Source: Minisyncoccota bacterium (GTDB lineage Bacteria > Patescibacteriota > Minisyncoccia > UBA6257 > GWB1-50-10). From it: 60,128 bases of DNA. Below, piece after piece: positions 1-51,415 of this stretch. The position numbers were made by a program, and so were the translations under genes. Under the pieces are notes generated by a model. The model was not told the origin of the DNA. It ran no database searches and worked only from the letters and a program-made list of their open reading frames with translations. The stretch is taken from contig JAGVBB010000002.1 of the NCBI GenBank assembly GCA_020059915.1, positions 1 to 60,128 of the forward strand, read 5' to 3'. Each line of letters begins with the position of its first letter. Positions within the stretch are counted from its first letter, which is position 1.

Positions 1-123
1 CTAGGATTCGAACCAAGGGCGCATAAAAACAAGGAGTATTTATAATACGACTATGTTTTTATTGCGTTTCGACCGAAGGGAGATAAGAATCCTAGTGGGC
101 CTGCCTGCGGTAGGCAGGGGCAC
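1..123 (+). repeat. tRNA-derived unit: antisense T-arm, hairpin spacer, tRNA-3'-end-like copy interrupted by a palindrome
   Basis: ctaggattc (1-9) and gaatcctag (87-95) are inverted repeats; inner stem gcataaaaaca/tgtttttattgc; palindrome at 100-118. Confidence 0.6.
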
Positions 124-156: not shown

Positions 157-194
157 GAATTTTTAATTATCAATTTTTAATTTTTAAATAAAGA

Positions 195-268
195 GGATTC
201 GAACCGCGGGCTGCAGGCTTCGAAGAGAAGCCGAAGATCTCGAACTCAGCAGAGTGAGAGGCGAATCC
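195..268 (-). repeat. 74-nt structured element, copy A
   Basis: Reverse complement aligns ungapped to 49367-49440 at 61/74 (hand count). Confidence 0.85.
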
Positions 269-296
269 TAATTTTTAATAACTATCATAAATAAAA

Positions 297-43950: not shown

Positions 43951-44077
43951 CCGTGGTGTGTGCACGTGCATACACCTATATCATACACCCCACAAAAACT
44001 CCCGATAGAAAGGAACAAGGCAAAAAAACAATGTCTAGAACATGCTTTTTTTGTTGTGGATAACTGGGGACTCGCAA

Positions 44078-44276
44078 AGGTTATGAGTTTTTAGAGCCCG
44101 CTCCATATATCGACAAGCCAGCTTGTCGATATAAAGGCCGCTTGGCCAAGTCTTAGTCTCCAAAAACTCACAACCTTTTCTCGCTGAGAGGTATGGGTTT
44201 AGAGATTTAGTCTCTGCACACAGAAGTATTTGTTCGTTTTAAAAAAAATATTTCAATCTTCAAAAACTTATAACCT
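44078..44276. repeat. Two tandem ~90-100-bp units with terminal inverted repeats
   Basis: aggttatgagtttttagag / ctccaaaaactcacaacct; second right end cttcaaaaacttataacct exactly 100 bp further. Confidence 0.65.
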
Positions 44277-44295
44277 TTCCTCATTGGAAGCAGAG

Positions 44296-44643
44296 ACTCC
44301 GACAAAAGTCGGAGTTTTTTTATGGGCGGCTATTTATTAGATTGGGAATTCTTTCAACTAACCACTCGCCGTCGCTCGTGGTTGTTTCAAGCCTGGGCTC
44401 GCTGTGCTCGTTACTACTCGCACAACGCTCCGCCCTTCAATTCCTAATCAGAGACAATAAATTGTCTCTGATTCTATCCGCCAAAAAACTCCGACAAAAG
44501 TCGGAGTTTCTTTTTGGGCGGCTAGAGGGAATTTTTCTCCCCCAACCTCATTATCATTCGGCTTCCTCCGAAACCTGCCGCACCCGCTCGGACCAATGGC
44601 GCGGGTGTCGGCTTCAATTTCTTTTTAATTGCCCAACTACGTT
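44296..44643 (-). repeat. Two tRNA-His 3'-end duplication units
   Basis: 19-bp copy at 44515-44533; degenerate copy at 44324-44350; identical 20-nt hairpins at 44296 and 44488. Confidence 0.85.
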
Positions 44644-44644
44644 G

Positions 44645-44716
44645 GGCGGCTAGAGGGAATTGAACCCTCGATTACGGGACCACAACCCGTCGTTTTACCA
44701 CTAAACTATAGCCGCC
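44645..44716 (-). tRNA. tRNA-His(GTG) with encoded G-1
   Basis: Cloverleaf GCGGCTA/TAGCCGC; anticodon stem ACGGG/CCCGT; GGTTCAATTCC. Confidence 0.95.
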
Positions 44717-44794
44717 ATCCAATACATATCAAAGCAGAAAATATGTTTTCTTTCAAGGATTTTATTTAATGTCCCAATTTTTGCATTTTATGTT

Positions 44795-45490
44795 TTGATT
44801 TTTGAGTTATCTTGGTGTATATATAGAGGAATGGAGAGTGTAATGGATGGTTTAGGCGCTCTAATTCAACAATACCCCGCATGGGGACATTTTATTATTG
44901 GCATAGCAATACTCATACAAGGAGAGTTGGGGGTTTTTCTTGGCACATTTCTTATTGCCCAGGGAAGTTTTGGATGGATTGACTATATTACTGGAGCATT
45001 AATAACAATATTCATTGCTGAATCTCTAGTATTCTTTTTTGGTCGCTTTATGCGAACTACTAGGTTTGGGTGGAGAATTTATAGAAACAAGATAAAACCA
45101 AACAAAAAATATCAGCCATATTTCTATTATCTAAGAACCAATTTAACAAAACTGTTTGTGAGTGCACGTTTTTTAGTTGGTGTTAATTTTTTTGTTCTGT
45201 TTCTGTCTGGTTGGTCAAAAACAAAATACGGAAAATTTCTAAAGTCTTACATTATTGGTCTTTTATCATGGTTTATCCCAATGACAATAGTTGCTTACTT
45301 CTTTATGTCCGGACTCAGTTATTTGAAACATGAGAAGATATTTAAACAAGCAGAATATGGTATTATCCTTCTTCTACTTATATTCTTTGGCGTTGAATTC
45401 TTGGTAAAAAAATATATGAAGAAAAAATCTCCGTTTGGAGGAAAAGAGGATGTGAGTGGATTTCTAGATGAGGAGGACGAGAAAAAATAA
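44795..45490 (+). CDS. DedA/VTT-like membrane protein (start may be 44831)
   Basis: IQGELGVFLGTFLIAQG, FVSARFLVG; several TMs. Confidence 0.7.
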   Translation: MIFELSWCIYRGMESVMDGLGALIQQYPAWGHFIIGIAILIQGELGVFLGTFLIAQGSFGWIDYITGALITIFIAESLVFFFGRFMRTTRFGWRIYRNKIKPNKKYQPYFYYLRTNLTKLFVSARFLVGVNFFVLFLSGWSKTKYGKFLKSYIIGLLSWFIPMTIVAYFFMSGLSYLKHEKIFKQAEYGIILLLLIFFGVEFLVKKYMKKKSPFGGKEDVSGFLDEEDEKK

Positions 45491-45523
45491 ACCCGGCATA
45501 TGCCGGGTTTTTAAAATAAATAC

Positions 45524-45898
45524 CTACTCAATCAATTCTTTTTTAAATATCCATTCAAAAAAAGAATAAATAATAAAAAATGCTACAAACATCAAGATGT
45601 GATAAAACGTTGAAACTGTAATCATCTTCAAAACAGAAAGAAATGCGACAGTGAAATCTCTGCTTATAAGCAGAATGAGACTGAATATAATAATACTCCC
45701 CGCGATCGCTATTATTTCTGAAAGCGTGTTCTTTCTTTCGTGCGTAAATGAGATAACACCAGAAAGAAATACAACGAGAAAAAAGAAAAATGTTTTATCA
45801 ATAAAAAAGTTGAAATCAAAAAAGATATTGTAAAAATAGGAAAAAACTGCCAACAAGAAAGGATATAAAAAATACAATCTTGCTTGATACTTAGTCAT
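45524..45898 (-). CDS. 4-TM hypothetical protein
   Basis: GAGGAG SD, own promoter and terminator. Confidence 0.75.
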   Translation of the reverse strand: MTKYQARLYFLYPFLLAVFSYFYNIFFDFNFFIDKTFFFFLVVFLSGVISFTHERKNTLSEIIAIAGSIIIFSLILLISRDFTVAFLSVLKMITVSTFYHILMFVAFFIIYSFFEWIFKKELIE

Positions 45899-45934
45899 TT
45901 CTATTCTCCTCTAAAGTTTGTTAATGATATGCAA

Positions 45935-45963
45935 ATTATAATATAAAACATATTAATAGTCAA
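45935..45963 (-). promoter_or_regulatory. Sigma70 promoter
   Basis: TTGACT-17-TATAAT. Confidence 0.8.
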
Positions 45964-45992
45964 ATATAAATCCCCTGCAATGCAGGGGTTTA

Positions 45993-46524
45993 TTATTTTT
46001 CATAATAAAGAAAAGGATCTCCATTGCTGTAACCAATGCTTACTTTCTTCATAGTCGGATCTTTTTGTTTTGCCAAATGTTCAATATATCCAACTGTTAC
46101 CATCGGATGAACAACAATTTCATCTTTGTTTTTCCATTTTGGTATGGGTAGAATGCTAAAAGATTCATTTTCAACATTTTCCGGCGTTCTAAATACTTGG
46201 ATGCGATCCACTGAAACATCGGGAAATTTAATCGAAGAAAGCTCTTTTAATTCGCTGACGCTGCCATATAATAACGCGCTGACCGCTTCATTTTGATTAT
46301 GTATTGGTTTTCTAATATTCATCAAATATGATAAAGCAGTAAAAATGGTAAGAATAACTGAGGACAGACAGGAAAATGCATTGATAAGTTCGGACATCTC
46401 TACAAGCGATGAAAGCCTAAACATTTGTATTGCAGTAAACAGTTTTGAATATCAGAAAAAATACTGCATATCCAACAATCCACGAACCAACCCAAAATAA
46501 TAAAAGTTCAAGAAATAACAACAT
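45993..46524 (-). pseudogene. Membrane protein apparently split by a 1-nt frameshift (ORFs 46417-46524 and 45993-46424)
   Basis: GAGGAGG SD before ATG 46524; removing one base from the run at 46443-46446 gives one 176-aa ORF. Confidence 0.5.
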
Positions 46525-46558
46525 AAAAACCTCCTCATAAATTGTTAATGTTGAAAAT

Positions 46559-46587
46559 ATAATACATTTTTATTTCTTATTTGTCAA
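46559..46587 (-). promoter_or_regulatory. Sigma70 promoter
   Basis: TTGACA-17-TATTAT. Confidence 0.75.
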
Positions 46588-46617
46588 ATATAAATCCCCC
46601 GCTGTGCGGGGGAATAA

Positions 46618-47580
46618 TTATTTGTTTCTTTCAGGAATTCGGAGCGTGTATACACCTTTTGGTATCCCCTCTCTACTCAAGATGTGCGCATTCGCACGCT
46701 GAATTTCTTTTGTAGATATTCCAAATTTTTTAGCAAGTTGATTCCACGATTCAAACTTCTTTACAGAATAATCAACGAGTTTTATTTTTGCTCCCCCAAA
46801 TTTCATTTCTCTCACAAATCCATATCGCTCTGGATTTTCCAAAATGAGCTTTAAAGCAATGATCCTTGGAATATATTGTTCTGTCTCCTTTGGAAGTGAG
46901 GTCAAAAGAAAATAAGATCGCTCATTATCTTTCCTTATTGCCTGCCAGACTCTCCCAGATCCAGCATTATATCCCGCAAGAGCAAACATCCAACTTTCGA
47001 ACGGACCAAATTCCTTAAATTCTTTCTGTAGGGTTTTTAATTCATCACACGCAGCGACTGTTGCTTTTTCAAAATGAAAGCGCTCGTCAATCACTCCATT
47101 GATTGTAAGATTGTTTCGCCTTCCTGTTCCCAACGTAAATTGCCAACCACCTTTTGCACCAGCCTTCGACACAACAGTTGTGTTTAGCTCCGACTCCGCA
47201 ACAGAAACATATCCGGCATCAGGTGAAATGTCCATTTTCTTGAATGTGGAATTCATCTTTGGGAAAAATTCTGGTTTTCTTTCAAGATATAAAATAATTC
47301 TCCACCTATTTTTTGGGGCAACATAATATCGGATCCAAAAATCAATATCATCTGAAACTCCATAATATTGAAGTGGTACATTTCCACCAAAAAAAGAAAT
47401 TGAGTCGGGAATATATGGTTGATCCTTCACTGCAATCGCCCGCTGAACGTCCCTAACTTGTTTTGTTATATCATTAATAGTATTTTTCTGTTTTTCAACC
47501 GTATCTTCTGTCATTCTCAACTGAACCGCTAAATAAACAATAAGGAGAAGCACAACAAGATATTTGAAATACTTATCCAT
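46618..47580 (-). CDS. MltD-like lytic transglycosylase (SLT plus LysM-like)
   Basis: VSVAESEL, GAKGGWQF, LAGYNAG, LPKETEQYIPR; GGAGG SD before ATG 47580. Confidence 0.9.
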   Translation of the reverse strand: MDKYFKYLVVLLLIVYLAVQLRMTEDTVEKQKNTINDITKQVRDVQRAIAVKDQPYIPDSISFFGGNVPLQYYGVSDDIDFWIRYYVAPKNRWRIILYLERKPEFFPKMNSTFKKMDISPDAGYVSVAESELNTTVVSKAGAKGGWQFTLGTGRRNNLTINGVIDERFHFEKATVAACDELKTLQKEFKEFGPFESWMFALAGYNAGSGRVWQAIRKDNERSYFLLTSLPKETEQYIPRIIALKLILENPERYGFVREMKFGGAKIKLVDYSVKKFESWNQLAKKFGISTKEIQRANAHILSREGIPKGVYTLRIPERNK

Positions 47581-47668
47581 AACTTCCTCCGTTTTATTAT
47601 TAATTTTCTCGTTATACTCTACCCCATATTCAAACACACCACAAGAAAATATATAGTAAAATATCTCA

Positions 47669-48313
47669 GTGGTAGCAAATAAAATAATCTGGACAGAAAA
47701 CATTGCATATGCCGTTGGAGTAATAGCCTCTGATGGTAATTTAAATAAACTAAGAAAAAGAATACAGCTAAAATGCGCGGATTTTGAGCTTGTTAATAAT
47801 TTGAAAAAATCTTTAAATCTAAAGGAAAATATAAAAACAACAAAAGCAAAAAGTGGACGAATACATTACTATATAATGTTTACACAATCAGATTTTTACG
47901 ATTTTTTAATCTCTATAGGAGTTGAACCAAAAAAATCTCACTCAATAAAACATGTTTTAGTTCCAAAAAGATTTTTCAATGACTTTCTTCGTGGTTTATT
48001 TGATGGCGATGGAACATTTTATACATTTTGGGATACAAGATGGAGAAATAGCTTTGGGTATCAGATTTCATTTTCCTCTGCTAGTAAGGCATTTATTTCG
48101 TGGTTAAAAAAAGAAAACACAAAAAATTTTTCTGTTAAAGGATTTATTAGGAAAGGTAAAAATGTATATAATTTGCGGTATGTAAAGGGAGACACTAGAA
48201 ATTTATTTAAAATGATGTACTATAATAGCCATAGTCTTTCTCTTACTCGAAAAAAGATGAAAATGGTTGAAGCGTTTAAAAAAGAGAGAGATATAAAGAA
48301 AAAGCCACGGTAG
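47669..48313 (+). CDS. Two-motif LAGLIDADG homing endonuclease (start uncertain)
   Basis: AYAVGVIASDG and FLRGLFDGDG. Confidence 0.9.
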   Translation: MVANKIIWTENIAYAVGVIASDGNLNKLRKRIQLKCADFELVNNLKKSLNLKENIKTTKAKSGRIHYYIMFTQSDFYDFLISIGVEPKKSHSIKHVLVPKRFFNDFLRGLFDGDGTFYTFWDTRWRNSFGYQISFSSASKAFISWLKKENTKNFSVKGFIRKGKNVYNLRYVKGDTRNLFKMMYYNSHSLSLTRKKMKMVEAFKKERDIKKKPR

Positions 48314-48378
48314 CTCAGTGGTGGAGCGCTGCCCTGAAGAGGCAGGCGTCGGGGGTTCGATTCCCTCCCGTGGCACCA
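48304..48378 (+). tRNA. tRNA-Phe(GAA), CCA encoded
   Basis: GCCACGG/CCGTGGC acceptor; CTGCC-CTGAAGA-GGCAG anticodon arm. Confidence 0.95.
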
Positions 48379-48467
48379 ACACAAATATACAACAGCCTTT
48401 TAATACTAGGGATAAGGCACTAAAAGGCGCTCTGTTTATTTCTTAAAATAATTATCAATAATACAAT

Positions 48468-49211
48468 ATGTTTATACAGATTCTTATTGCAAGTTTTGTT
48501 GGAAGTATTCTCTCTCTTATCGGGGGAATTCTTTTGTTAACAAAAGAACATATTGCAAAAAAAATATCCCTTTATCTCGTTAGCCTTGCTGCAGGAAGTC
48601 TGATTGGTGCAGCCTTTTTGGATCTTATTCCAGAATCTTTGGAGGCGGGAGGAGATGCACATACTATATTTATTTTTGTAATCGCGGGAATTGTTGTGAT
48701 GTTCTTGTTCGAAAAATTTTTAAAGTTATATCACTGTCACAACAAAGAATCATGTAATTATCACACATTCTCAAGTTCCATCCTTGTAGCAGATACAATT
48801 CATAACTTTATAGATGGGGTAGTAATTGCACTCAGTTTTAGTCTTGGTACAGAAATTGGAATCACTACTACAATAGCAATATTTTTTCATGAAATACCAC
48901 AAGAAATTGGTGACTTTGGAGCACTCATACACGCGGGATGGAAACGATCAAAAATAATTTTCTTTAATGTGTTCACTGCGCTTGCAACGTTTGTTGGTGC
49001 AATTCTTGGATATTTTATGCTCCCAGTTCTTACATCAATCCTTCCTTTTATTATTGCATTTGCTGCGGGCACATTCTTATATATCGCAATTTCTGATCTC
49101 ATGCCTGAGGTAAAACATGCAGCAAAACCAAAAGAATTTATGCATATTGCGGTAATAGGGTTGGGAATATTTATTATTTATTTATCGGGAATGGTCTTTG
49201 GATCTCATTAA
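48468..49211 (+). CDS. ZIP-family metal transporter
   Basis: LAAGSLIG, DTIHNFIDG, HEIPQEIGDF. Confidence 0.95.
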   Translation: MFIQILIASFVGSILSLIGGILLLTKEHIAKKISLYLVSLAAGSLIGAAFLDLIPESLEAGGDAHTIFIFVIAGIVVMFLFEKFLKLYHCHNKESCNYHTFSSSILVADTIHNFIDGVVIALSFSLGTEIGITTTIAIFFHEIPQEIGDFGALIHAGWKRSKIIFFNVFTALATFVGAILGYFMLPVLTSILPFIIAFAAGTFLYIAISDLMPEVKHAAKPKEFMHIAVIGLGIFIIYLSGMVFGSH

Positions 49212-49253
49212 AAAGTTCAGATGAAAAAACATTCCGCGATGCGGAATGTTTTT

Positions 49254-49531
49254 TTTGTCGGCACTTCGCACTGCTGTATTCAGCACCTCCTTCGCCTTCG
49301 CTTTTTGTCGGCACTTCGCACTGCTGTATTCAGCACCTCCTTCGCCTTCGCTCAGTCGGGATGCCGGGAATCGCCTCTCGCTCTACTGAGCTCGAAACCT
49401 ACGACCTCTCTTCGAGGTCTGCGGCCCGCGGTTCGATTCCATTTCAAAAAATAAAAAACGGGGCAAGAAGCTCCGTTTTTTATTTGTCGGTACTTCGCAC
49501 TGCTGTGCTCAGCACCTCCTTCGCCTTTGCT
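49254..49531. repeat. Three 49-bp direct repeats, a 22-bp tRNA-Pro 3'-end copy and the 74-nt element (copy B)
   Basis: Copies at 49254, 49304, 49483; 49352-49373 equals 49531-49552. Confidence 0.9.
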
Positions 49532-49534
49532 CAG

Positions 49535-49605
49535 TCGGGATGCCGGGAATCGAACCCGGCCTACCTGCTCCCAAAGCAGGCGTACTACCGATATACTACA
49601 TCCCG
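49535..49605 (-). tRNA. tRNA-Pro(TGG)
   Basis: CGGGATG/CATCCCG; CCTGC-TTTGGGA-GCAGG. Confidence 0.95.
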
Positions 49606-49668
49606 CCCCACTGCACTTCAATTTATACTATTTCTGTTGTAGAATCAAACCGTATTAAAAATTTAATC

Positions 49669-49740
49669 GCCCCCGTAGTTCAACGGATAGAATAGCTCCC
49701 TTCTAAGGAGTAGATTGAGGTTCGATTCCTCGCGGGGGTA
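49669..49740 (+). tRNA. tRNA-Arg(TCT)
   Basis: GCCCCCG/CGGGGGT; GCTCC-CTTCTAA-GGAGT; GGTTCGATTCC. Confidence 0.92.
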
Positions 49741-49789
49741 CTAAATATAAAACACTGTCCTTCGACGGTGTTTTATATTTTTTATTTTT

Positions 49790-49906
49790 GAGGAATTGAA
49801 CCTTTTGCCCCCGTGGAGGAAAGTATTGAAAACCGAGAGGTTTTCAAAGTTAGGGGGTCGGGGGCAAAAATTGTGTTTATGTGAGATTTCCTCGCGGGGG
49901 TACTAA
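49790..49906 (+). repeat. tRNA-Arg antisense-T-arm / spacer / 3'-end duplication unit
   Basis: gaggaattgaacc at 49790; 19-bp copy at 49888-49906 equals 49726-49744. Confidence 0.85.
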
Positions 49907-49991
49907 GAATATGAATACTCGGTAAATTGACATAATCGCCTTTTTTTGTTTTACTTTTTTAGTTCATTATCATAATAATAGCGAGGAAACT

Positions 49992-50396
49992 ATGGCCCCA
50001 AAGAGTGAAAAATTAACCAAGAAGTGCGCTGAAAAAATAAAAGAAAAAATCCTTGAGGAACTCGAAAATCAAAAAACGATGCTGGATGGGTTCCTAGAAC
50101 AACTACAAACAAACGACAGCACTATTTATATTGGAAATCCAAATGCAAATAATGAGGAAGTTCTTTCCAATCTCCAGGCGCAAATAGCACGCAAAAATCT
50201 TGAAGTTGAGAAATTACACAAACGTCTCGTGGTAGTAGAACATACCATACAATTCAGAAAGGAACATCCAAAAATGGAAATTCCTGAAAATCCCGATATG
50301 TATACGGGAAAATGTATAAAGTGTCATTCTCTTATTCCTCAAGCACAGCGAATTGCTCGTTGTGCCCCCATAACATGTGTTTCGTGCTCACATTAA
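49992..50396 (+). CDS. Divergent DksA/TraR-like C4 zinc-finger protein
   Basis: N-terminal coiled coil; YTGKCIKCHSLIPQAQRIARCAPITCVSC; GAGG SD. Confidence 0.65.
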   Translation: MAPKSEKLTKKCAEKIKEKILEELENQKTMLDGFLEQLQTNDSTIYIGNPNANNEEVLSNLQAQIARKNLEVEKLHKRLVVVEHTIQFRKEHPKMEIPENPDMYTGKCIKCHSLIPQAQRIARCAPITCVSCSH

Positions 50397-50418
50397 AAAC
50401 CCCCTTTCGGGGGTTTTA

Positions 50419-51045
50419 TTATTGAATTGATAAATCAAACTCCGTTATCTTTGATTGAAATTCATCATTCAACTCATTAATTCTCTTTACGTTCGCGTTT
50501 GCACGAGCAACTGCTGCTTCAATTAATTTTTGATCCTGCTTTCCCATCTCAATACCACGCGCGATTGATACAATCGCTTCGTTAAGATTCTTGGTATACA
50601 CAATATACTCAGAAACAAGTGAAATTTCTGCGGTCATTGCCCCATAGGCATACCGTTGTGATTTTCCACCAGGCATTCCGTTTATATATCCAATAAGTAC
50701 CTGAAGATGCCGAGAAAGCTCTGCTGCATTTCTTGCCGCTTCATTGTTTGCAATTTGAGCTTCATTAAGTAATAACTCTGCACGTGCGTTGTCTTTTGCA
50801 TATTCCGCTTCATTTGCCTGTTTCATCTTTTCACGGGCAATGTGTGAGAGTTCTGCAACCTGACGACTGGTGATTCCCGCATTATATCGTGCAACACGAA
50901 ATTCATCAGACACAACAACTTTTTTTTCTTCATTGAAAGACGCAGAAAGAGCAATTCCTGCAACAACAAGAACCACTGCAGATATTGCAACTACAACAAC
51001 CATACCTCTTTTATTCCTTATCCAATTAAATCTATGCACCACCAT
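50419..51045 (-). CDS. Membrane-anchored helical hypothetical protein
   Basis: N-terminal TM, coiled-coil-like body. Confidence 0.75.
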   Translation of the reverse strand: MVVHRFNWIRNKRGMVVVVAISAVVLVVAGIALSASFNEEKKVVVSDEFRVARYNAGITSRQVAELSHIAREKMKQANEAEYAKDNARAELLLNEAQIANNEAARNAAELSRHLQVLIGYINGMPGGKSQRYAYGAMTAEISLVSEYIVYTKNLNEAIVSIARGIEMGKQDQKLIEAAVARANANVKRINELNDEFQSKITEFDLSIQ

Positions 51046-51137
51046 ATCATAGTGGAATACTTTAAATTATTCAATAAATATATCCCAAAAAGGGTTTGCA
51101 AATTATTACTATGTTTTGTATTATAATCCTTGATGTC

Positions 51138-51208
51138 GCGGGTATCGTATAGCGGCATTACACCACCCTTCCAAGGTGGATACACGGGTTCGAGTCCCGT
51201 TACCCGCT
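51138..51208 (+). tRNA. tRNA-Gly(TCC)
   Basis: GCGGGTA/TACCCGC; CCACC-CTTCCAA-GGTGG. Confidence 0.95.
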
Positions 51209-51248
51209 CAGTAAGGCTCCGCTTGCGGAGTTTTTTAGTTGGTGGGTA

Positions 51249-51320
51249 AATCAAAAACAACTACTTGTTTTTGATTAGGGACTCGAGGGGCGGACCTACC
51301 TACCGGCAGGCAGGGCGATG
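51249..51320 (+). repeat. Partial tRNA-associated unit homologous to the His distal unit, with a palindrome insert
   Basis: aatcaaaaacaa/ttgtttttgatt hairpin, agggactcga, gggcgga, insert at 51295-51314. Confidence 0.75.
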
Positions 51321-51415
51321 TTTATACTCTTCCTGTAACAACCTATATAAAAGCATTTGTAAATAATCAGTTTTCTATGTTATTCTTGACAAAAAGGGCG
51401 TTACAGGGGTGTTAC

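Follow-up and report, generated by a model that had tools for sequence, protein, structure and literature searches.

Candidate structured elements of several families at the 3′ flanks of tRNA genes in Patescibacteria

Integrase islands at transfer RNA (tRNA) and transfer-messenger RNA (tmRNA) genes leave the tRNA intact and are flanked by a direct repeat of the tRNA 3′ end that starts in the T-loop; they also accrete in tandem. The same features, a tmRNA host included, are found in a group of small units downstream of tRNA genes, which we describe here from a 60,128-nucleotide stretch of an ultra-small Minisyncoccota bacterium (contig JAGVBB010000002.1; Patescibacteria, groundwater; hereafter the window) and from other Patescibacteria loci. 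Read in its own sense, the tRNA is in most cases followed by a terminator-like hairpin (T1), and then come A′, a GC-rich folded stretch and A, with A′ being the reverse complement of the tRNA T-loop region and A a direct copy of the tRNA 3′ end. The arms meet in a closing helix of 7 bp, P1, which is formed by the antisense T-loop and the first 7 nt of A (T-loop positions 56–60, C61 and C62). Unlike integrase islands, the units measure only 100–200 nt each and contain no open reading frame (ORF), no genes and no integrase, and their left boundary is inverted and enters the trailer of the tRNA gene. Whereas an integrase island carries one fixed identity segment and has one cognate tRNA, a single unit core occurs at tRNAs of 14 amino-acid identities and at tmRNA, and this core is conserved in place.

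A further likeness exists to folded recombination sites. In integron attC and in attP(+) of CTX phage (XerCD), two inverted arms form a stem that mimics the target duplex, as in the units. Both also have a short conserved inner helix with extrahelical bases (P1 and an AA bulge in the units) and a middle that is structured but variable, fold in a strand-specific manner and can form arrays at a single site. In contrast, the GTTRRRY/RYYYAAC boxes and the IntI context of attC are missing from the units, whose inner helix is GGAWTCG/CGAWTCC and whose 3′ arm has no GTT. Moreover, the arms of attC and attP(+) are constant, whereas those of the units are templated from each local target; likewise, the stem of Xer-exploiting elements (IMEX, CTX-type attP) mimics dif, that of the units the tRNA 3′ end. 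Miniature inverted-repeat transposable elements (MITEs), REPINs and GC-rich palindromic mini-elements, examples of which are the GC clusters of yeast mitochondria and the double-hairpin elements of Allomyces, resemble the units as small, non-coding, GC-rich hairpins in an AT-rich genome, and they also form families with presence/absence polymorphism. The terminal repeats of MITEs, however, are derived from the element, conserved within a family and related to those of an autonomous insertion sequence, while unit arms vary with the host tRNA and share only 7–11 T-loop-like nt. A MITE makes a fixed short target-site duplication, a unit a direct repeat of 19 to about 66 nt plus an extra inverted copy. 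The strict position 3′ of tRNA genes, the single orientation and the phylum-wide conservation at tRNA level further separate the units from all of these elements.

Structured RNAs linked to tRNAs are known as plant tRNA-snoRNA dicistrons, mitochondrial t-elements and the mascRNA of MALAT1. In these cases, and probably in the units, a structured RNA has as its neighbour a tRNA or a tRNA-like helix to which RNase P or RNase Z might be recruited, and young units resemble a minihelix of acceptor and T-stem ending at N73-C74, in the manner of tRNA-like processing signals. The units differ in being bacterial, duplicative and split into several families, and in that the mimic decays in old copies; any processing of the units is hypothetical. 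Riboswitches and other 5′ leaders lie upstream of, and on the same strand as, the gene that they regulate, a placement not seen for the window units. A CRISPR-like array consists of unique acquired spacers between constant repeats, whereas the “spacers” of the units belong to a few families conserved across genomes. Every known class that we compared fails at least one defining feature, and no described class of RNA or mobile element appears to fit. Rfam 15 has no match over the units at gathering threshold and only noise at E ≤ 10; ARAGORN and the tRNA model RF00005 report only the six true tRNAs of the window, even at E ≤ 10, and the units are not cloverleaf tRNAs. We found no description of them in the full-text literature, a search limited to open-access papers, so that a prior description is possible.

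The six tRNA genes of the window (His, Phe, Pro, Arg, Gly and Leu, identified by ARAGORN and Rfam) are accompanied by seven units: two after tRNA-His, one each after tRNA-Pro, -Arg and -Gly, and two at the window start. No unit follows tRNA-Phe, and the flank of tRNA-Leu falls beyond the window. The original prediction, made from the letters of the window, had proposed a layout of tRNA, hairpin, antisense T-loop, GC-rich spacer and tRNA 3′ end for His, Pro, Arg, Gly and the window start, with two tandem units at His and no right arm at Gly. All of these pieces were found, and the idea of a recurrent, gene-less architecture that is tied to tRNA 3′ ends and comes in families was borne out. The unit stretches have a GC content of 50–53%, compared with about 30–40% around them, and face convergent genes or terminators. 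Apart from the true tRNAs, exact matches to GGAWTYGAAC occur in the window at units only. We also compared 111 distinct tRNA loci, the majority of which were chosen through a unit pattern. A copy of at least 13 of the last 16 nt of the tRNA lies downstream (≤320 nt) in 55 of the 111 loci, but upstream in only 2 of 101. Even among the 57 loci without the exact family-1 pattern (see below), 15 show such a copy, about 10 of which represent other unit families. Since exact motif matches are confined to units and tRNA-end copies are in such excess downstream, the units are not due to chance; most tRNA genes seen bear at least one such element. The direct repeats mostly stop at C74 or A75. As for the tRNA genes themselves, N73-C74 is encoded without a full CCA in tRNA-His, -Pro, -Arg and -Gly, while tRNA-Phe has an encoded CCA.

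The 66-nt core common to the Pro unit and the second unit at the window start defines family 1. The Pro unit (49355–49442, minus strand) comprises A′ GGAATCGAACC (49430–49440), the core (49371–49436) and A (49355–49373), which is a 19/19 copy of tRNA-Pro positions 56–74; it scores 98.8 bits (E=3.6e-24) against our covariance model of the family, R1. Window-start unit 2 (193–270, plus strand) has the P1 left arm GAGGATTCG, its core at 199–264, and the right arm CGAATCCTA with a truncated A tail, and scores 91.5 bits (E=3.6e-22). The family-1 core was identified in 85 Patescibacteria loci. A 29-nt pattern retrieved 22 loci from the GTDB species set, every one of them in a Patescibacteria metagenome-assembled genome (labelled Paceibacterota, Kaiserbacteria, Minisyncoccia or “Saccharibacteria”), and a different 31-nt pattern, in which the 5′ third is unconstrained, retrieved 63 metagenome loci. 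A tRNA on the same strand lies just upstream of 46 of the 64 unique copies and covers the 14 amino-acid identities mentioned above, the remaining copies being mostly located at contig ends; one copy is preceded by a tmRNA gene. Where context exists, the tRNA-to-core distance is 30–100 nt, mostly 30–70 nt. Core length is nearly always exactly 66 nt, with optional expansions at two hairpin tips. No match to the core was found in IMG/VR, INPHARED (phages) or PLSDB (plasmids).

In the predicted structure, P1 is followed by an AA bulge and a CC/GG step, and the core forms a three-way junction in which P2-P3, a stem of 6 bp, ends in an invariant GAAGA loop and P4 contains tandem G.A pairs. We examined covariation in 56 distinct family-1 sequences, using 500 shuffles and slid structures as controls. 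Paired cells make up 95.1% (33–45% in the slid controls), and two-sided changes were counted in 190 cells compared with 56 in shuffles, none of the 500 reaching 190. Three helices covary strongly. Of the base pairs in P3 and P4, three each are hypervariable yet always compensated, and the unpaired bases of the core are nearly all invariant. P1 covaries with the T-loop variant of the host tRNA (CGAATCC, CGATTCC, CGAGTCC, CAAATCC or CGACCCC). In helices 3–4, 16 cells are G.U and only 3 are non-pairs. This excess points to the tRNA-sense strand as the one that folds, in single-stranded form, and an RNA would fit the purine-rich loops of the core. Judging from these patterns, the core most likely works as a single strand in the tRNA sense, most simply as an RNA. 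The original prediction had offered antisense hairpins acting on tRNA precursor processing as an alternative. In this structure, the antisense T-loop serves mainly as one strand, the 5′ one, of the closing helix of the element itself. Because A′ decays beyond the 7 bp of P1, it is not maintained as an antisense sequence against the tRNA.

Comparison with relatives allows conservation in place to be separated from gain and loss. The relative L087/L088 is syntenic with the window, with gene order kept over 20 kb and a ZIP protein of 82% amino-acid identity (homologues of this protein carry the labels Jorgensenbacteria or Parcubacteria). The His1 and Pro units are present in L087 and the His2, Arg and Gly units are missing, so that three of the five differ; His2 is also missing in L088. 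Between the window and L087, the Pro core is identical at 64 of 66 positions (97%) and tRNA-Pro at 70 of 72, compared with 84% for the T1 hairpin after tRNA-Pro and 56% for third codon positions of the ZIP gene. The degenerate outer part of A′ is common to both, so the Pro unit predates the species split. The His1 orthologue in L087 and L088 is 90% identical with compensatory stem changes, and its A shows a C>T acceptor change that matches the one in its own tRNA. A conserved core amid diverged flanks is also evident from direct reading of the listed sequences for L050/L051 and L028/L064. Since the core is conserved like a tRNA while its surroundings diverge, it is under purifying selection in place, although units are also gained, lost and truncated.

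The arms, in contrast to the core, follow the local tRNA. The part of the local tRNA that is reverse-complemented in A′ spans roughly T54 to C74. A repeats roughly C56 to C74 in direct orientation and at some loci runs on into the trailer or terminator; a perfect match (19/19) between A and host tRNA positions 56–74 is seen in 26 of 46 loci. Direct repeats are between 19 nt and about 66 nt long (L004, L083, window Pro) and may continue through the trailer or the whole terminator (L004, L083, L016, window His2). Outside the 7 bp of P1, the pairing of A′ with A falls to only about 45%. A full A′ is kept with A lost in L053, L082, L045 and L030, and the converse holds in other loci such as L011. 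As either arm can be the intact one, both start out full-length and local, with P1 alone being maintained. In 44 of 49 loci, pairing with the A′ region is predicted for at least 12 of the last ~24 nt of the tRNA, and the best loci form a nearly continuous in-register hairpin of up to ~40 bp. This pairing runs in register from T54 through the trailer up to A′, so that the inverted copy also takes in trailer sequence from outside the tRNA. Young copies present the 3′ end of the tRNA, the trailer and A′ as a single long in-register palindrome, whereas old copies retain P1 only. At stem mismatches (L018, L021), A′ is the complement of the tRNA 3′ strand and not a copy of the 5′ strand.

Three simpler origins of the arms were rejected. 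They do not derive from a primer-binding site for, or a retro-copy of, mature tRNA, as they continue as the gene trailer and not as CCA/TGG (L016). A′ is not a relic of an earlier host tRNA either, its outer part matching the local tRNA or nothing. Finally, the units are not tRNA pseudogenes: they give no cloverleaf match, and A′ is the complement of A and not a copy of 5′ strands.

Based on these observations, we propose that the units are structured elements, probably tRNA-sense RNAs, which are copied to tRNA 3′ flanks by T-loop-seeded fold-back or template switching; we put the probability of this explanation at roughly 0.45. They comprise several Patescibacteria-specific families with a GC-rich core of about 65–100 nt, located immediately 3′ of tRNA or tmRNA genes in tRNA orientation. 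The RNA would arise by read-through or co-transcription with the tRNA. In a newborn copy, T-stem and acceptor stem would be joined by the arms into a stem resembling a minihelix, with its end at N73-C74, and enzymes of tRNA processing might trim it. New copies would be made by a duplicative, synthesis-based process with no dedicated recombinase, in which the strand folds back and switches template at the T-loop; the latter is universally conserved and nearly palindromic (TTCGAA), and the T-loop-like ends of all existing units match it. Two lines of evidence lead to this proposal: conservation, covariation and strand bias argue for a functional single-stranded molecule, and the combination of inverted and direct local copies, trailer register, variable repeat ends and TTCGAA boundaries argues for a synthesis-based origin rather than recombinase exchange.

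Several points weigh against this proposal. No unit transcript was observed. In a groundwater metatranscriptome, the tRNA-Ser adjacent to a unit is an 88-nt contig and the unit has zero depth, which is weak evidence, coming from contigs only at low depth. A good intrinsic terminator stands before more than half of the units, but after only about a quarter of them. Helix P2 depends on invariant G.U pairs with no covariation and is tentative. We found no intermediate and no empty/filled pair with clean junctions, and the template-switch origin is suggested by anatomy alone. Furthermore, strong conservation in place is unlike a purely selfish element, and frequent gain, loss and arm decay are unlike a purely host gene, so an explanation has to accommodate both. 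In its broadest form, the proposal would amount to a new class of elements: families of small structured RNAs that have settled in the 3′ flanks of tRNA genes of essentially all kinds, and of tmRNA genes, throughout Patescibacteria, spread enzyme-free via the T-loop and are retained by the host under tRNA-like constraint. We regard this extension as doubtful. The host role of a retained core might lie, for example, in tRNA 3′-end metabolism or in a phylum-specific ribonucleoprotein.

It is unlikely, in our view, that the units are instead non-autonomous mini-integrative elements moved in trans by a site-specific recombinase, as the original prediction had suggested, even if folded-hairpin attachment (att) sites of the CTX-phage or integron kind are included. 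In such a scheme, A′-core-A would be the att module, the proximal A would be element-derived and the distal A the original host end, now displaced. The order A-T1-A′-core-A is indeed what a small circle opened at the T-loop would yield, the proximal unit of the window His array looks younger, and a recombinase in cis is missing: among the window genes with a Pfam annotation (about 43 of 60 kb, array surroundings included), none encodes one. A large serine recombinase family, homologues of which are common in Patescibacteria, does occupy tRNA 3′ ends; in 5/5 contexts examined (L095–L099), the 3′ end of its gene overlaps the tRNA 3′ end in antisense, and the tRNAs entered this way are Ser, Arg and Met (L095–L099, L078, L100). 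Closely related strains even differ between tRNA-Ser and its family-1 unit, a gap of 19 nt in L017 and L047. L066, which is 99.6% identical to L017 upstream of tRNA-Ser, carries 1.46 kb with three small genes between tRNA and unit. L078 is 99.98% identical from A′ onward to L047, which has no island, and contains the C-terminal part of a large serine recombinase, the ORF of which runs directly into the family-1 A′. At tRNA-Arg of L097, a 4.7-kb island with a recombinase ends beside a unit-like module at its far end. The junctions of the serine recombinase, which was followed through 7 contexts, however, lie at the extreme tRNA 3′ end (GCGG/CCGC; L066, L078, L100) and not in the T-loop, no window unit abuts a serine recombinase ORF, and the R1 model detects no family-1 core in the five recombinase loci, which adds to its absence from the viral, phage and plasmid collections. 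Likewise, old copies without a recombinase remain 97% conserved, and a carried att arm could not match at least 14 tRNA identities plus tmRNA. Tyrosine-integrase att sites fare no better: the T-loop is split with its left half inverted, and one core occurs at all these hosts with locally matching arms. An inverted copy that continues in register into non-tRNA trailer, together with a direct repeat of variable length, points to DNA synthesis rather than site-specific exchange. On these sequences, the islands appear to use the tRNA ends, and the A′ of the units, merely as targets.

The units could also be purely host non-coding RNA genes whose tRNA-derived arms are kept for function, either as a minihelix mimic to which RNase P, RNase Z or the CCA-adding enzyme would bind, or as a three-segment switch between tRNA A, A′ and unit A by which maturation of the upstream tRNA is controlled. 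Conservation at tRNA level, covariation, the G.U bias and the constant orientation relative to the tRNA would all be expected, and A tracks its own tRNA, as in the His C>T change of L087 and the tRNA-Asp series L007, L050, L051 and L034. What makes this reading improbable to us is that either arm can be lost or truncated with the core intact, that A′ is not maintained outside P1, that several unrelated core families have the same arm logic, that sister species differ in their units and that terminators often stand between tRNA and unit. We give a very small probability to the units being decayed scars of larger islands or prophages once integrated at these tRNAs, with the cores as leftover ends of no present role. 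A duplicated tRNA 3′ end is the classical island scar, real islands are present at these sites (L066, L078, L097), and L002 has an attR-like pseudo-T-arm copy. Yet neutral decay would then be expected, whereas the core is conserved like a tRNA amid diverging surroundings and has an identical design, with compensatory changes, in different classes of the phylum. Nor would a scar account for the inverted arm and the in-register palindrome. Chance similarity or an assembly artefact at repeated T-arm sequences is next to impossible. Contigs in several assemblies do stop exactly at an inverted T-arm copy (window position 1; L019/L021; L093/L094), and the units therefore break short-read assemblies. 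However, a JGI contig from an independent assembly is identical to the window over 20.7 kb, independent JGI, ENA and Logan assemblies agree on the units, the 85 loci come from many studies, and neither the downstream excess of tRNA-end copies nor the strong covariation statistics would result from an artefact. The proposal of copied, structured elements, probably acting as RNA, remains our preferred one.

Outside family 1, the window holds units with other cores. Because R1 finds family-1 copies at only two window sites, several unrelated cores must have a common arm logic. Window-start unit 1 (family 2; 1–101, plus strand) consists of A′ CTAGGATTCGAACC (1–14), a core (15–86) and the right arm GAATCCTAGTGGGCC (87–101), and is homologous to a unit after tRNA-Tyr in L004 (z=5.8). 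Its host, beyond the contig end, is probably tRNA-Trp; the independent contigs L093 and L094 terminate exactly at its first position. The His array is hosted by tRNA-His (GTG; 44644–44715) and lies on the minus strand; tandem arrays also occur in L016. His1 (44514–44619) has A′ AATTGAA (44613–44619) followed by a GC-rich core and an A (44515–44533) that is a 19/19 copy of the tRNA-His 3′ end (20/20 in the direct-repeat search), and a terminator-like hairpin comes after it (44489–44506). His2 (family 3; 44323–44445) comprises A′ GGAATTGAA (44437–44445), a two-hairpin core and a right arm made up of GAATTCCC, an 11-nt insert and TAGCCGCCCA; it is homologous to a unit after tRNA-Phe in L089 (z=4.3). 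Together with the adjacent end of A, the terminator-like hairpin after His2 (44297–44314) makes up a repeat of 37 nt, and the copy after His1 shares 95% identity with it. Since the L087 orthologue has a different stem, this duplication post-dates the species split. Between a methyltransferase gene and the His array (44060–44290), there are inverted repeats of 17–21 nt (AAAGGTTATGAGTTTTT / AAAAACTYAYAACCTTT).

In the Pro array, also on the minus strand, hairpin T1 (49445–49485) lies between tRNA-Pro (TGG; 49534–49605) and its unit, and a distal terminator hairpin, T2 (49224–49256), is shared with the convergent ZIP gene and orthologous in L087. Two smaller GC hairpins inhabit the tRNA flanks. 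One is a 48-nt element (TGAGCRAAGGCGAAGGAGGTGCTGA..GTRCCGAC) with three copies at Pro: two in tandem (49257–49302 and 49307–49354) directly after the A of the Pro unit and a third (49486–49533) directly after the tRNA-Pro 3′ end. Because this element follows both copies of A, the Pro repeat reaches 48 nt past the tRNA; all three copies are missing in L087. The hairpin GAGCACAGCAGTGCGA of the 48-nt element is identical to helix P4 of some family-1 cores (R1 match at 49493–49512). The other is a 20-nt GC palindrome, a recurrent mini hairpin (CCTRCCTRCSGGYAGGCAGG) that is found directly after tRNA-end copies at 100–118 (CCTGCCTGCGGTAGGCAGG) and 51295–51314 (CCTACCTACCGGCAGGCAGG) of the window and in L044 and L073.

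On the plus strand, tRNA-Arg (TCT; 49669–49741) is followed by hairpin T1 (49743–49780) and the Arg unit (family 4; 49790–49905), which consists of A′ GAGGAATTGAACC (49790–49802), a long GC hairpin core and A TTCCTCGCGGGGGTACTA (49888–49905) and has a local motif in common with a unit after tRNA-Met in L052. Downstream of it, a 134-aa ORF without a Pfam match (49992–50396) is, like the unit itself, missing in L087. Behind tRNA-Gly (TCC; 51138–51209, plus strand), the partial unit (51240–51286) has no right arm, and its A′ is split by a hairpin (51250–51275) inserted between the acceptor-strand reverse complement TGGTGGGTAA (51240–51249) and the T-stem/T-loop reverse complement AGGGACTCGA (51277–51286). 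An identically split A′ is found in L016 and L013, and the Gly region differs in relatives, where a joint of 51240 to 51355 was seen.

Some neighbouring features deserve mention. A LAGLIDADG_3 ORF (214 aa, E=2e-7; 47669–48313, plus strand) ends inside the start of tRNA-Phe (48304), and both are missing at the corresponding position of L087; it looks like a free-standing homing-endonuclease gene associated with a tRNA. In L074 (1990–2300), the intact tRNA-Gln is directly preceded by an incomplete second copy of its 5′ part and by an ORF of 83 aa, GIY-YIG-like by eye alone; both are missing in the related L055. Regarding the serine recombinases, L098 and L099 have the resolvase domain on an ORF of its own, called upstream, and the island of L097 carries a reverse transcriptase gene (RVT_1; 742–1740) as cargo. 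Many homologues are fragments of about 235 aa whose contigs measure about 900 nt, as if the gene contained or adjoined a repeat.

Taken together, the interpretation given in the original prediction is partly supported. The expected enrichment of tRNA-end copies over controls, shared spacer families with covariation, agreement between assemblies and presence/absence differences between related genomes were all observed. Homology between the spacers of different units holds for Pro and window-start unit 2, but not for His1, His2, Arg and window-start unit 1, which belong to other families, each related to units at other tRNAs, and the claim that the window lacks a recombinase stands for its Pfam-annotated genes. 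The suggested acquisition array did not hold up, the “spacers” being a few conserved families and not unique captured sequences. The interval 44296–51320 consists for the most part of ordinary genes that lie between the arrays.

Patescibacteria, the candidate phyla radiation, represent a large share of bacterial diversity with minimal genomes, and one of the unit families is conserved in them as tightly as a tRNA. In practical terms, the inverted tRNA-end repeats break assemblies and add tRNA-end target sites for islands. If units are indeed copied as proposed, a conserved structural motif of tRNA genes would be able to spread DNA with no transposase involved. Should the core be an RNA, it would represent a new and abundant RNA class in a lineage with reduced RNA-processing machinery, and this would be directly testable in the few cultivable, genetically tractable members.

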